Source: Vulcanimicrobiota bacterium (GTDB taxonomy: Bacteria > Vulcanimicrobiota > Vulcanimicrobiia > Vulcanimicrobiales > Vulcanimicrobiaceae). From it: a stretch of 31,875 nucleotides of DNA. Each line of letters starts with the position of its first letter. Position 1 is the stretch's first letter. Shown here in pieces: positions 6,001 to 12,000 of this stretch. Made by a program: the position numbers. The stretch covers positions 1 to 31,875 of the forward strand of contig PLCF01000050.1 of NCBI GenBank assembly GCA_003135555.1, in the 5' to 3' direction.

Positions 6001-9000
6001 CGTTTCGCTCTCCGGGCCAGGCGACGTCGTACTTCTACGGGTATGCCAAGCTGCTGGCGTTGCGCGACGAAACGCGAGGCCTGCTCGGCGCGCGCTTCGA
6101 CCAGCGCGCATTCCACGACTTCATCCTCGACCAAGGGCTCGTGCCGCCCGACGCGCTGCGCGCCGCCGTGCTGGCGCGCTTCGTCACGATATGAAAGCCA
6201 CCGTATTCCACGCGGCGCGCGACGTGCGCGTCGAATCCGTCCCCGATCCGGTTCTCAAAGCCCCGACCGACGTGTTGGTGCGGGTCGTCAACGCCGCGAT
6301 CTGCGGCTCCGACCTGTGGCCGTATCGCGGGGTCGCGAAATGGACCGGCGGCGCGCGGCTCGGCCATGAGTTCACCGGCATCGTCGAAGCGATCGGCACC
6401 GAGGTCCGCGCCGTGCGGGTCGGCCAGTTCGTGGCCGCTCCGTTCTCGTATGCCGACGGGTCCTGCGCGTTCTGCGCCGCGCACCTGTACACGTCGTGCG
6501 CGCGCGCCGGGTTCTGGGGCGGTCTGGACGACGACGGCGGCCAGGGAGAGTTCGTGCGCGTCCCGTTCGCGGACGCGACACTCGTCGCGATCCCCGACGC
6601 GGTTCGCGACGACCCGGCCAAGCGTACCGCGGCGCTAGCGCTGACCGACGTCATGGGAACGGGCTATCACGGCGCGGTGAGCGCCGGGACCGTACCCGGC
6701 GGGACCGTGGTCGTCATCGGTGACGGCGCGGTCGGCTTGTGCGCGGTCCTATCGGCGCGCTACATCGGTGCGGAGCGAATCGTCGCCGTCGGCCATCACC
6801 CCGACCGCCTGCAACTCGCGAAGCGCTTCGGGGCCACCGAGATCGTCGACTCGCACGCTGCCGACGCCGGCCGTTCGATCGTCGAGCTGACCTCCGGGGG
6901 GTCTCCCAGCGTCGTGGAGGCCGTCGGCGTGCAGAGCTCGCTCGACCTCGCGCTCGAGACGGTCCGCGACGGCGGCACCGTCGCGTTCGTCGGCGTCCCG
7001 GCGGGGATGGAGACCCTCTCGTTCCGCCGCCTCTTTAGCGGGAACGTCGCGCTACGCGGCGCGCTCGCACCGGTTCGCGCGTATCTGCCTGAGTTGATGT
7101 CGGCGCTCGCCGCCGGCGCGATCGACCCGTCGCCGGTCTTCACCCACCAGCTGCCGCTGGACGGCGCCCCGGCCGGTTACAAGGCGATGGACGAGCGCGT
7201 GGCCATCAAGGTCTGCCTTACGGTGTCGAGCCCGTAGGGCGAGGCTGCGCGCACGAACCATGCCGCCAGCAGCGCCAGCAGCGCGGCGTCGTCGATGATG
7301 CCGAGCAGCGGAATGTCGCCGAGGATGTTGAGCGGCGAGAGGATGAACAACGCACCAGCGAGCGCCAGCAGCTTGAGGCGCCGCGGGACACGCGGATCGC
7401 GGGCCAGCGCGTACGCGCGCAATACGGTGCGCCGGGACGTCAGGAGCAGTCGGATGAGACCCATATGCGCTACTAACGGCCACCGTGCCGCAATGTTTCG
7501 GCTATCTCGCCAGGCGAGGACAGCGCAATGGCCCGTTCGCGGTCCGGCGCGCTGAAAGGCTACGCGACGGTGGGGGGAAACACCAGCGTCGTGCCGACAT
7601 CATCGCGTCGTTCCGCCGTAGCGCACCGTGCGGGGACGCCGTTGGATGAGGCGCGCGCGTGCTGGAGCAGCGGCGAGTTCGTTCGGCTGCTGGCAGTGCT
7701 GGGCGATGCCCGATTGGAGCGCCGCGAAGACCGCGTCGCCGCGAGCCACCTCGAGGCGCGCGCGCTGCTTGCGCTCGACCGGCCGAAAGAAGTTGCGGCG
7801 CTGCTCCAGCGTGCGATCGACGAGAACCACGGCGTCGAGGAAACCGCCCGCTCGCAGATGCTCCTGGGCGCGGCGATGACCCGCACCAACCAGCGCGAGC
7901 AAGGTGAGTCGGTGCTCGAGCAGGCGGCGGAGTTGGCGCAGCGGGGCGCCGCGGGGCTGGCCTCCGAGATCGCATACTATCGAGCGCTGAGCCGCTGGTC
8001 GTCGCATCGTCTGACGGAAGCCGAAGAGATCGTGGAGGCCGCCCTGCCGGCCGCTTCGGGCGTGATCCGTTCGCGTCTGCTCCAGCTGCTGGGCTGGATC
8101 GACGTGCGGCGTGAAAACTACGGTGCCGCCGTGCACGAGTTCAGCGCCGCGCTCGACGAGCTCAAGCAGACGCAGGAAACCGACGTCAAGGGACGGTCGC
8201 GGATCTTGAACGCGCTGGGCATCATCGCCGCCGAGACGATCGACCTGCGGCTGGGCCGCCTGGTGCGCCGCGAGTACGAGACGAGCACCTGGTCGGACGA
8301 CACGCGCATCGAGCGCTTTCAGGTGCTGCAGTATCTGGCCTGGCTGTCGTTGCTCGAAGGCGACGTCGCGCGCGCCTGGGACGAGCGCCAGTTCGCGCTG
8401 ACGCTCACCGTCGACACCAGCCATCACGCCATGGCGCTCGTCAACGCGGCGCACCTCGCCGGCATCGTCGGCGACCGTTTCTCGGAGTCGCGTTACCTCC
8501 AGTTGGCCGGTGCGCTGCTGCTGCGCGGCGATCAGGTCGGGATCGACGTGGAGCGCCGCATCGCATTGTTGGCGTTCGCCGCCGCATCGGCCGCCGATCC
8601 CGCCACCGCTCGCAAGGTGCTCGCGCTCTACGACCGGACACGACCGCGTCGCGCAGAGCTGCTCGCCTTCGAGGGCGACCGCCGCGTCGAGGCCTACGAG
8701 CTCTATGCGCGCGGCCGAGCAGCGATCGCCGACGGTCAGCGCCAGCAGGGGATCGCGCTGCTCGTGCGTGCGCTCGAGCTGTGGACGCGGCTGACCTACC
8801 GGTTGCGCGCCGCGATCACCGCGAACGTATTGCGAACGGTGAGCGGAGACCGCGCCCACGCGCAGACAGCCTTGGACGCGTTGCGCAACGCTCCCAAGGC
8901 GTGGTTGCGCGTGCCGCTCGAGCAACGCTCCAGCGAGGACGGTGCGCTGGGCCAGCTGACCGCCGCAGAGCGGCGCGTCCTGGGCGAGTTGTGCAAAGGG

Positions 9001-12000
9001 AAGAAGGCGCGCGAGATCGCGGCGACCTTCGATCGCAGCTTCAACACGATCAACAATCACACGCGCGCCATCTTCTCCGCCTTCGGCGTTCGCAGCCGCG
9101 CGGCGCTCGTCGCGGAGTGCGCGCGGCTGGGGATCCTCGACGACGTCGGGAACCGCCGCTAAAAAGACCCGGAAGGGGCGCGTACGCCCCCTCCGGGCCC
9201 CGCGCCGGCCGCGCGAGCCGGGGGCTATCCCGGCGGTCCGGACCCGCTGATCTCGTTCGAGGCGTCCGCGGTGACCGGCGGCGGGGCGACGGCGAGCGCC
9301 GAGGTCCCGATCGCGAGCGTGACGAGAAGCGCGAGCACGGCGAGTGGCGTGAGCATAGCGGTTTCCTCCAAGCAGCCGCGCCGCAAGAGCGCGACGCGGC
9401 TCCGAGGTCTGGCTCCGCTTGCCATGGCTATTCCTGGCTACTGCCCGCCGGCAGCCGAATTAGCCCGCTTGGGCTAACTCGCCCGGTGCCTCCCGCCCAC
9501 GACGAAAAAACCCGGCCTGAACGCACAGCCGGGATCGTGGGGGAGCGCCGGCCCGGGTGTGGGACGCCTCGGGTGAGGCATCGACCGGCGCTCCGGAATC
9601 ATCGTGGCACGACAAGCTGCCGCCCGGAAGCCTAGAAGTGGTCACCCGCAGGTGACAGCACGTCAGTCAGGTTAGCTAGTTGTCGCACGTCGGCCGCGTT
9701 AGGCGGCGATCGGACCTGCGACCAGCAGCTGCTCGAAGCGCTCCGCGGATACGGGCTTGGAGAACAAGTACCCCTGACCGCAATCGCTGCGCAGCGCGAC
9801 GAGCGTGGCGAGCTGCTGCTCCGTCTCGATGCCTTCGGCGACGACTCGCGCGCCGAGCGCGTGGGCCGCGGTGATCACCGCCGACGCGATCGCGCGGTCG
9901 ACCGGGTTCTCGACGATGTCGGTTACGAAGCACATGTCGAGCTTCAGCGTGTCGACCACGTAGGAGCGCAGCGTCGCCAGCGAGTTATAGCCGATCCCGA
10001 AGTCGTCCACGGCGATGCGGACGCCCAGGGCGCGCAGCTCCTTCACGACGGCGGCGTTGTACTCGATGTTCGCGCTGATGGCCGTTTCGGTCAGCTCGAG
10101 CTCGAGGAGTTCCGGGGCCAAGCCCGATTCGCGAAGCGCCGACTCCACGGTGCGGACGAAATCGGGGTCGACGATTTGCTTCCCCGACACGTTCACGCTC
10201 ACCCCGAGCTGGGGCGCGGTGCGGTTCCAGGCGGCATTTTGGATGCAGGCCGTACGCAAGACCCACGCCCCGATCGGCACGATCAGCCCGGATTCCTCGG
10301 CGTAGGGGATGAAGTCGTTGGGCTGAACGACCGTTCCGTCGGGCTGCGGCCAACGGATGAGCGCCTCGCTCCCTCGCAGCGTGCCGTCGAGCGCGTAGAT
10401 CGGTTGATAGGCGAGGGCGAAGGCTTCGTCGTGAAGCCCTTTGCGAAGGCGATAATCGAGGCGGTCCAGCGCAATGTCGTAGAGCACGAAACCGCCGCGA
10501 CCGCGCTTGGCCGCGTACATCGCGACGTCCGCTTTCTTGAGCAGGGTCGCCGCATCGCGGCCGTGCAACGGCGACACCGCAAGTCCGATGCTGGCCGCAA
10601 TGTTGATCAGACGGCCGTTGATGGCGCAGGGCGGCAGCAACGAGGCGAGCAGCCGACGCGCGATCTCGGCGCCATCGGTTTCGCCGGTGCCCGGAAGCAG
10701 CACGGCGAACTCGTCGCCGCCGAAGCGCGCGACGAGGTCGCCCTCGCGCAGCACGCCGCTGAGCCGCAACGCCACGTCCTGAAGCAAATTGTCGCCCGCA
10801 GCGTGACCCAGCGTGTCGTTGACGTCCTTGAAGCGATCGAGATCGATCAGCGCGAGCGCAACGGGTTCGCCGGTGCGCCCCGCGGCTTCCATGACCTGCG
10901 CCAGGCGTTGGTTCATAGCGGCGCGATTCGGCAGGCCGGTGAGCGCGTCGTGAAGCACTTGATGCTGCAAGGCCAGCTCGGCACACCGGCGCTCCGTGAT
11001 GTCGGTCGCGACCGCGACGACACTATCCACTTGGCCGCGGACACGTACCGGCGTCCAGTGTGTTTCGAGAACGACGCCGTCCAGCGTGCTCAGCGCCGTG
11101 TGTTCGTCCCCGGCGAGCGCGCGCCGCGCCTGGGCGATCAGGGCCGGGGCGTCGCTATACAGCGTGAAGAACGAGCGTCCGATCATTTGCTCAGCGGGAT
11201 GGCGGATCGCGGCGAGATCGCGTCCTTCGGCAATCGTGATGATGCCGGCTGCGTCGAACGCGAAGAGCACCACCGGCGCGTTCGCTACGACCATGCTGAG
11301 CCGGCGCTGGCTTTGGGCGAGCGCGGAATCCCGCGCGGCGAAGCGTCGATCCACGAATGCCAGCACGCTCGCGAAACCGCTTACCAGCAACGTGACGAAC
11401 GCGATCGCGGCGCCGCCCACCGCGTCCCCGGTCAGAAGCCAGCCCGTGCTGGGCAGGCTCGCCACGCCGACGAACGTTGCAGCCGCCATCCCCGTGTAGT
11501 GCATCCCGGCGATCGCGACTCCCATGACGATGGCGGCACTCAGCCGGTGCAATCCAAACCGCCGGCTCGACACGGCCCGGAGATGGAAACTCAGCCGCAG
11601 CGCCACAAAGGAGAAGACGATCGCGACGACCGCCGAAAGCGCGATGATTCGCAGGTCCCAGCGCGTCGCCGCGGGCATCCGCATGGCGAGCATCCCGATG
11701 TAGTGCATGCTCCCGATCCCGGCGCCCATCACCACGGCGCCGCCCAGCGTCGACCGCCAAGTGATTCTCGGGCGTGAAACCGTGAACAAGGCGACCCCGC
11801 CGGCGAGCATGGCAACCACCAGCGACAGGAAGACGATGGGAATGTCGTAGCTCACGTCGACCGGCAACCGGAACGCCAGCATACCGGTGAAGTGCATCGC
11901 CCACACGGCGCTCCCGAAGGTGATCGCGCCGCCCAGCAACCACACATAGCGGGTCCGGCCCTGGTGTTCGGCGATGCGTTCGCTGAGGGTCAGCCCAACG

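Follow-up and report, generated by a model that had tools for sequence, protein, structure and literature searches.

The window analysed here, a 31,875-nt contig of a Vulcanimicrobiota bacterium, carries a regulator gene and a small gene that lie tail to tail, 63 nt apart, with a 13-bp hairpin in the gap. The following features were located:

7528..9162, plus strand: g03183, regulator gene, 544 aa, TPR-like superhelix and C-terminal LuxR/GerE helix-turn-helix (HTH); candidate cytoplasmic peptide receptor
7633..8907, plus strand: TPR-like superhelical sensor region of g03183, residues 36-460, predicted from the model and fold comparison
8953..9111, plus strand: LuxR/GerE HTH of g03183, residues 476-528 (Pfam PF00196)
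9168..9197, no strand assigned: GC-rich hairpin of 13 bp separating the two convergent stop codons, perhaps a shared terminator; absent from the terminator-scan calls
9225..9356, minus strand: g03184, propeptide gene, 43 aa, ending SGSGPPG
9228..9254, minus strand: predicted mature peptide EISGSGPP(G), residues 35-43, its boundary taken from repeats in relatives
9288..9356, minus strand: uncharged hydrophobic leader of g03184, residues 1-23, lacking a K/R n-region
9365..9369, minus strand: Shine-Dalgarno sequence GGAGG of g03184, 8 nt before the ATG
9374..9401, minus strand: stem-loop just upstream of the g03184 ribosome site, probably a 5'-UTR hairpin
9425..9440, minus strand: conserved 16-bp box, candidate operator, ~84 nt ahead of the propeptide start
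9461..9476, no strand assigned: another 16-bp palindrome of this type seen in the window, candidate second operator

This arrangement agrees with the initial annotation, which had described a 544-aa TPR protein with a C-terminal LuxR HTH beside a convergent 43-aa ORF. In g03183 the Pfam GerE match lies above the cut-off (E 3.2e-8), the TPR_12 match is weak, and the AlphaFold2 model (pLDDT 92.6) is all-helical, consisting of solenoid and HTH only. Across the family, TPR folds appear in structure comparisons and TPR Pfam matches in as many as 29 of 86 members, one of which matches PF17874 (TPR_MalT). The best structural match is MalT domain III (Z 25.3, rmsd 4.1, 322 residues aligned), which again comes first in a second comparison (Z 24.1, rmsd 5.1, 347 aligned), in line with the fold neighbours named earlier. 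Rap is the next nearest solved fold, its peptide complexes being among the nearest matches (Z 23.4, rmsd 5.8, 333 aligned), and NprR and AimR are neighbours as well; this likeness to RRNPP proteins (Z 15-23, 9-11% identity) is common to many unrelated TPR proteins. Neither an RRNPP nor a MalT chain is among the 60 best sequence-profile matches listed for the regulator, a domain search found no NTPase family in its 544 residues, and a search of longer proteins gave, as weak evidence, one weak generic TPR match. Complex prediction from the regulator's TPR alignment and propeptide residues 14-43 scored 0.02, which speaks neither for nor against binding.

The stem-loop ahead of g03184 recurs, with altered bases, in orthologues; its z-score is -3.4 in the window and below -2 in 9 of 19. 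Its RNAalifold consensus is weak (-1.5 kcal/mol) because the register shifts, and single-sequence folding was used in its place. A simple scan found no sigma-70 promoter or terminator at the pair, and three metatranscriptome assemblies from the same study do not cover the two genes and are uninformative.

The regulator family is present in 172 of the 206 Vulcanimicrobiota family genomes searched, forming 621 clusters at 50% identity (E <= 1e-30), and most relatives of g03183 measure about 500-545 aa. Under a fixed rule requiring a hydrophobic leader and a GGP motif, a small ORF accompanies 89 of 167 regulators vs 6 of 1,042 control genes (the controls were the genome's own long ORFs, of which 8 of 1,044 matched, including both pairs of the family itself); with a second rule the counts were 93 of 167 vs 13 of 1,477, the 13 again including the two own pairs. 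By curated count a propeptide adjoins 116 of the 167 regulators and is absent at 44, some of them whole clades. Within the window's clade the ORF is found at 22 of 29 regulators and missing at 4, the other 3 being cut by contig ends, and the pair occurs in 24 of 26 additional metagenome loci, which are partly redundant and come from a single large clade. Most distant paralogues had been thought to lack a peptide, which proved wrong: 94 of 138 have one, mostly upstream, where it was missed earlier. The second pair reported in the same genome (C58:109742-111490) does exist, not tail to tail but with the peptide upstream of the regulator on the same strand; a third paralogue, on C8, has no peptide, and no orphan propeptides were found in this genome beyond the two paired ones. 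Peptide type tracks regulator clade. ESM Atlas look-alikes of the regulator came from Vulcanimicrobiota and, by features only, Actinomycetota; propeptide matches there all fell under 0.8 and were left out of the analysis. A literature search, covering few subscription papers and no supplements, found no prior account of this regulator-peptide family.

That the small ORFs are chance frames is hardly conceivable: their small size is all that speaks for it, and the enrichment over controls under both rules, the ribosome sites ahead of the ORFs, and the synonymous differences between repeats with low pN/pS in the cores have already refuted it, as far as sequence can go. In 48 precursors with repeated motifs, which bear out the earlier remark that some propeptides repeat their end, copies share an identity of 0.65-0.78 over core positions -6 to -3, compared with 0.27-0.34 over the spacer, and codons differ between copies for 17-56% of the identical residues. 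In four of five groups the core has a lower pN/pS than the sequence upstream of it; the fifth shows no such drop. The repeats mark out an 8-residue core, EISGSGPP[G] in the window's version, which on these comparisons is under selection. The GxGPP ending proposed for the tails holds in the window's clade; family-wide the tail is better written as approximately D-hydrophobic-x-x-G-G-P-[S/P/T].

Precursor designs are varied: short hydrophobic forms, leader plus spacer plus core, multi-copy forms and lipoproteins. Among 105 collected precursors, 103 are 22-92 aa or up to 121 aa long, forms of 22-25 aa included, and the other two are 133 and 135 aa. A leader followed by repeated cores is also the layout of RiPP precursors, and multi-core substrates modified by enzymes encoded elsewhere would fit it too; among 135 representative neighbour proteins (of 143 clusters from 294 heterogeneous neighbours), however, no recurrent modifying enzyme or dedicated exporter was found within ~1.2-2.5 kb, and we regard the RiPP explanation as most improbable.

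The leader is where the initial annotation, which gave g03184 a signal peptide, needs correction, since it is not of the canonical kind. A K or R occurs within the first seven residues of only 1 of 100 non-lipoprotein leaders vs 77 of 86 secreted-like proteins of the same genome, and these leaders are therefore not canonical Sec signals. Five precursors combine a basic n-region with a lipobox, which places their repeats outside the cytoplasm, and the partner of these lipoprotein-type precursors carries a DNA-binding domain. On average, tails carry more acidic than basic residues (D+E 2.0 vs K+R 0.8), which would favour an outward tail. The host is a diderm, as stated earlier and confirmed here; SBP_bac_5 matches number 16 in its genome, alongside two oligopeptide-ABC ATPase tails. 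The scarcity of basic n-regions, the outer membrane restricting escape and the near-confinement of palindromes to the cassette would suit a ligand acting inside its producer, either through a membrane-anchored tail by which the regulator is tethered or titrated, or as a periplasmic peptide that reports export, proteolysis or envelope state rather than neighbours. We consider this unlikely, as the lipoprotein-type precursors put like repeats outside, the acidic tails may point outward, and cores diverge fast between relatives, which fits private channels.

The box at 9425..9440 is the top match in its own genome for a matrix built without it. Such 16-bp palindromes are clade-specific and, away from the peptide promoter, hardly occur; one precedes the peptide gene in 54% of 98 regions vs 8% of 484 control regions, the 54% being partly made up of the 5' hairpin. 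A TAnnnT hexamer lies just 5' of the palindrome in 22 of 27 chosen cases, and in loci added later the palindrome matched the one predicted from the HTH helix. With overall relatedness removed, operator distance does not correlate significantly with HTH distance (partial r 0.09, p 0.13), so their covariation may be plain co-inheritance. Matrix and pattern searches for a regulon returned the cassette's own site and few others, three of the four one-mismatch sites falling inside long ORFs. This near-confinement to the peptide promoter suggests that the regulator-peptide cassette is autoregulated via its promoter palindrome, and means that the searches found no regulon and hence no output for the supposed signal.

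Having its sole consistent operator at the peptide gene, the cassette might instead make a surface, envelope or antimicrobial peptide as its regulated output, with the regulator sensing an unrelated small molecule; MalT domain III as nearest fold and the metabolic genes beside peptide-less clades would agree with this. Each clade nevertheless keeps its own core, precursors of 22 to 135 aa share the 8-mer alone, and the peptide-less clade next to hutF has lost the conserved R263, Y424 and R427. With no charge or an acidic one, the cores differ from membrane-active antimicrobials. We judge the output-only explanation very unlikely.

The reading we consider probable is a one-component peptide-sensing cassette of small gene and adjacent TPR-LuxR regulator. 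The hydrophobic leader would take the propeptide's acidic tail out of the cytoplasm, where proteases would free the ~8-residue core, here EISGSGPP(G) judging from the repeats; the core would come back in, probably via an Opp/Dpp-type importer, dock in the groove of the adjacent TPR-LuxR protein and alter its grip on the propeptide promoter's 16-bp palindrome. Because a -10-like hexamer immediately precedes the palindrome in operon-type pairs, the peptide would most simply lift repression there and so drive positive feedback. The window's tail-to-tail clade has its box further upstream, and either activation or repression could result. Paralogues with different cores and palindromes would form parallel channels in one cell.

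Linkage far above control, the lack of modifying enzymes nearby, the several precursor designs and clade-matched peptide types, together with selection on the repeated core and the palindromes, strongly support RRNPP-analogous peptide sensing in a diderm, with the HTH at the C-terminus, and to that extent sustain the original interpretation. Quorum sensing in the strict sense, which it also named, is an inference.

Most family members are chromosomal, and no relatives were found in annotated phages or plasmids, nor in viral contigs for the window regulator, A2, A4, the prophage regulator or A6. Three copies adjoin integrases, and two of them (L240, L283) have a CI-like neighbour and a second palindrome behind the regulator. 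It is tempting, if still somewhat doubtful, to see here an independently evolved diderm peptide superfamily: a MalT-like sensor-HTH minus the ATPase that became the receptor for self-made 8-residue GGP peptides, diversified into hundreds of channels, each with its core and operator, and was taken up by temperate phages to feed the lysis-lysogeny region in the manner of arbitrium.

If the pairs do signal, an outer-membrane phylum with hardly any cultured members arrived independently at the same logic, using different parts. From its sequence alone each cassette predicts a peptide, a receptor and an operator, which makes the claim cheap to test in E. coli; if true, it would yield many peptide-controlled regulators, possibly orthogonal to one another, and the prophage copies open peptide-guided lysogeny outside Bacillota to direct test.

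In the literature, one-component peptide signalling is known from Bacillota and their mobile elements, and the RRNPP signature has five parts: a 10-100 aa propeptide, export by Sec or, for short hydrophobic peptides, PptAB, a 250-500 aa receptor, TPRs and adjacent genes (PMC10075063). Compared with Rap-Phr, NprR-NprX, PlcR-PapR, Rgg-SHP, ComR-ComS, PrgX and AimR-AimP, the family described here likewise sets a TPR-like regulator beside a small precursor gene, up- or downstream, and both sides have multi-copy (PMC9765709) and short hydrophobic (PMC10075063) precursors. The window's propeptide (43 aa), solenoid and gene spacing fall within that signature, whereas the 544-aa regulator, from a family of about 520-545 aa, exceeds the receptor range. 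RRNPPA regulators carry an HTH or three-helix bundle N-terminally, ahead of the TPR domain (PMC9765709), whereas the HTH of g03183 is LuxR-type and follows the solenoid. In that family the mature peptide re-enters the cell and changes receptor activity by binding the TPR domain, as the core proposed here would. The present pairs also come from a diderm host in a different phylum, their leaders mostly lack the basic n-region, and identity in structural alignments stays at the 9-11% given above.

The best structural match, MalT domain III, belongs to a sugar sensor that recognises maltotriose and has the same order of sensor solenoid followed by LuxR HTH. Unlike MalT and other LAL proteins, g03183-type proteins have no N-terminal STAND ATPase domain; identity to MalT is 13%, and MalT is not known to have a partner peptide gene. 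The prophage pairs L240 and L283 resemble arbitrium (aimR-aimP-aimX of SPbeta-type phages) in lying in the lysogeny region with a further candidate binding site right behind the pair, comparable to the aimX layout, but regulator design and peptide are unrelated, and integrase-linked cases number only three. PipR of Pseudomonas sp. GM79 is likewise a diderm regulator with a LuxR-type HTH, answering to imported peptides; it differs in its autoinducer-binding domain and is not known to have a self-encoded precursor. The pairs thus probably work like RRNPP systems without being members of that family.

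The window holds a regulator gene and a small propeptide ORF converging on it, together with two palindromes that are candidate operators of the pair.

7528-9162, + strand: regulator gene, 544 aa; a GerE/LuxR HTH spans residues 476-528, and TPR is matched weakly
9225-9356, - strand: propeptide ORF, 43 aa, MLTPLAVLALLVTLAIGTSALAVAPPPVTADASNEISGSGPPG, converging on the regulator gene with 63 nt between
9425-9440: candidate operator box, best whole-genome match to a matrix from 12 relatives that excluded the window site
9461-9476: second palindrome, candidate operator

A GGAGG lies 8 nt 5' of the propeptide ORF start. 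In the AlphaFold2 model of the regulator (86-row alignment, pLDDT 92.6) a helical solenoid leads into the HTH. Two other full-length paralogues occur in the genome: the one on contig C58 has a 45-aa ORF ending SGNGPPG immediately upstream on the same strand, and the one on C8 has no neighbouring small peptide ORF. Both pairs reported in the initial annotation, in the window and on C58, are borne out. The relatives bearing a name are Ca. Elarobacter / Vulcanimicrobiota (Eremiobacterota, WPS-2). The genome encodes Omp85 and LpxC, and the phylum has been reported to be diderm (10.1101/534180).

Pairing was assessed at 216 loci taken non-randomly from the upper hit-list ranks, which gave 167 distinct regulators. 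A fixed rule, calling for a small ORF with a hydrophobic start and a G-x-P motif that either converges on the regulator or precedes it in the same orientation, found such an ORF at 89 of the 167, against 8 of 1,044 long ORFs from the genome that holds the window (two of the eight being the family's own pairs); a second rule gave 93/167 against 13/1,477 controls, and the small ORFs being chance occurrences, for which these controls give the background rate, is scarcely credible. Either rule caught 101 regulators. Curation by inspection added cases with frameshifted regulators or with very short, long or variant precursors and dropped four false calls, leaving the peptide present at 116, absent at 44 and cut by a contig end at 7; the row for locus L008 is from an unpublished genome and supports no claim. 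Within the clade that includes the window regulator, the peptide ORF accompanies 22 of 29 regulators, always tail to tail. Distant paralogues had been said mostly to have none; outside this clade it is present at 94 of 138 (83 upstream, 11 tail to tail), and the main counter-argument of the initial annotation therefore falls. Later-fetched metagenome loci with enough flank, several of them duplicates and all from one large clade, have it in 24 of 26 cases. Frameshifted regulators or precursors at L010, L023, L024, L025 and L106, with one precursor beginning at ATT, may reflect either decay or assembly error.

The window regulator has matches in all 36 genus genomes (two of them weak) and in 3/5 sister-family genomes. 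A solenoid-only profile, scored for at most five matches per genome and with genomes marked unpublished included, matched in 172 of 206 family genomes and, for two further families in the same class, in 1/3 and 1/22 genomes; six more distant genomes gave only E values of 1e-8 to 1e-12. In one genus genome, 99% complete, no match was obtained. At E <= 1e-30 it gathers 621 clusters at 50% identity.

Precursors come in several designs: leader-spacer-core, short hydrophobic peptides of 22-25 aa (L165, L166, L168, L179, L198), multi-copy forms and lipoprotein-type forms with five or six core copies (L182, L185, L190). Repetition of the motif, noted earlier, extends to 48 precursors with at least two matches, a few of them spurious, and reaches seven copies in L169. 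Counted from the motif proline, copies in this set agree at 0.27-0.34 identity over positions -10 to -7, rising to 0.65-0.78 over -6 to -3; among residues identical between copies, 17-56% of the codons differ. Four of five groups show a lower pN/pS for the core than for the upstream part. Judged from sequence, the conserved unit spans some eight residues, approximately D-hydrophobic-x-x-G-G-P-[S/P/T], kept as protein, which predicts EISGSGPP or EISGSGPPG (9228-9254) as the mature peptide of the window. Core types track the regulator clades on the tree, a pattern that co-inheritance alone would also give.

The propeptide had been credited with a signal peptide. Speaking against a canonical one, K/R occurs within the first seven residues of 1/100 non-lipoprotein leaders, against 77/86 secreted-like proteins of the own genome. 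The small peptide could be a ligand acting inside the producing cell, which we regard as unlikely; the acidity of the tails, together with the five precursors of lipoprotein type, suggests that the precursor tail faces outward. The scheme that we hold to be probable as a whole is that the precursor would leave the cytoplasm and be cut down to the core, which would re-enter the cell and bind the neighbouring regulator; the latter would control at minimum the precursor's own promoter, and paralogues would serve as parallel channels. In L085, L201 and L202 the core directly follows the lipobox cysteine (C-S-V-[LM]-G-G-G-P-S), and a lipopeptide signal is conceivable there.

Pfam matches of 135 neighbour representatives form a mixed set with no recurrent modifying enzyme, which argues against the precursor being a RiPP, a highly improbable reading. 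SBP_bac_5 is matched 16 times in the own genome, including once in the window (2884-4497), and oligopeptide-ABC ATPases are encoded as well, a possible import route for the peptide. The window gene belongs to a same-strand run just upstream of the regulator (2884-7237; SBP_bac_5 solute-binding protein, DUF885, zinc dehydrogenase); among orthologues, DUF885 is directly upstream in six and DUF1232 divergent in 14. A MHYT-PAS-GGDEF-EAL gene (9699-12185) precedes the propeptide gene in the same orientation, its position taken by a metallophosphoesterase in most orthologues. Farther along are a Tad/Flp pilus cluster (15646-27000) with TadE/TadG-like genes and a secretin by Pfam, plus what are presumably prepilin peptidase and assembly genes, and an ORF with a P-loop-like motif at its N-terminus (28874-30325), perhaps a further regulator. 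In one clade (L056, L066, L077, L206) a TonB-dependent receptor gene diverges from the cassette, conceivably as a target of the regulator or as a means of uptake. Elsewhere in the genome (C66:116336-118716) a two-gene unit, which we take to be rplS and signal peptidase I, is duplicated in tandem.

Of 98 regions ahead of a peptide gene, 54% contain a palindrome, compared with 8% of 484 control regions; the GC hairpin found in the clade of the window accounts for part of the former figure. The palindromes are 16-mers specific to each clade, and de novo fits score far higher than shuffles. Among 27 chosen cassettes of the operon type, 22 have a TAnnnT hexamer immediately upstream of the palindrome, suggesting a repressor position. 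The palindrome predicted from the HTH helix was found in later-fetched loci (L255, L257, L264, L272, L281 and most later metagenome loci). This is tempered by a comparison of 44 cassettes, in which the distances between operators and between HTHs showed no significant correlation after correction for overall relatedness (partial r 0.09, p 0.13). These boxes would also suit a peptide that is merely a regulated product, a reading that we consider quite improbable. Whole-genome searches, whose patterns derive from cassette loci and are informative only as to the absence of other sites, placed boxes almost solely at the cassette itself, so no regulon is in sight. The next-best matches of the window clade's box in the own genome, C41:33415 and C85:35688, are both intergenic, the former ~50 nt 5' of a lipoprotein-like gene. 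Second copies occur behind the regulator in three loci and, in one clade, 5' of a divergent Cys-rich gene. This gene, without a Pfam match (L033:337-1095, L040, L043, L046, L047) and with the second copy in two genomes, is the best candidate for a genuine target.

MalT domain III is the top structural match of the regulator (Z 25.3, rmsd 4.1, 322 aligned), already among the hits of the initial annotation, followed by phage Rap-peptide complexes (Z 23.4, rmsd 5.8, 333 aligned); a wide search gave Z 24.1 for MalT, 21.2 for LGN and 20.9 for Rap. Many unrelated TPR proteins reach Z 15-22, and the match therefore proves neither descent nor function. Because MalT likewise has a solenoid and then a LuxR HTH, origin from a MalT-like protein without the ATPase is the more economical guess. 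In a peptide-less clade of 13 members, of which seven immediately follow a hutF-like amidohydrolase gene, the residues R263, Y424 and R427, conserved elsewhere, are replaced by W, D and D, which hints at a pocket there and a different ligand in this clade. Its loci (L027, L028, part of L035-L049) adjoin the amidohydrolase gene or one for a zinc-ribbon protein, and a single type of ~190-aa gene of no assigned function invariably comes next; its regulator may sense a metabolite.

Integrase linkage was seen in one clade. L240 (G023:C327, also L250-L252) is an apparently complete temperate prophage adjoining tRNA-Gly, in the order integrase, propeptide, regulator and a divergent CI-like/Cro-like pair (labels resting on position and sequence, the CI-like ORF having no family match), with RecE/RecT, DnaB, portal, major capsid, tail and endolysin genes and, starting 52 nt past the regulator, an exact second palindrome; deeper inside the prophage are another integrase and another repressor. 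L283 has the pair together with a serine integrase and a phage-repressor-family gene, and here the second palindrome comes 8 nt after the regulator. In L241 the pair diverges from the integrase, and a small gene is shared with L283 (54% identity); for L287, the fourth member, no integrase was among the six neighbours scanned. Arbitrium has a gene layout similar to that of L240 and L283, and by analogy an arbitrium-like role of the three integrase-linked pairs is a lead.

Literature searches, judged by their listings over largely open-access texts, gave no description of this regulator-peptide family. The RRNPP analogy proposed initially is retained for the layout and for three of the five RRNPP criteria given in PMC10075063, with export, a further criterion, counting neither for nor against; it fails on length, and on the N-terminal HTH or bundle ascribed to RRNPPA in PMC9765709. 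The cassette resembles RRNPP in layout but should not be filed as a member. The pair is real, and the kind of system is known, built here from other parts.
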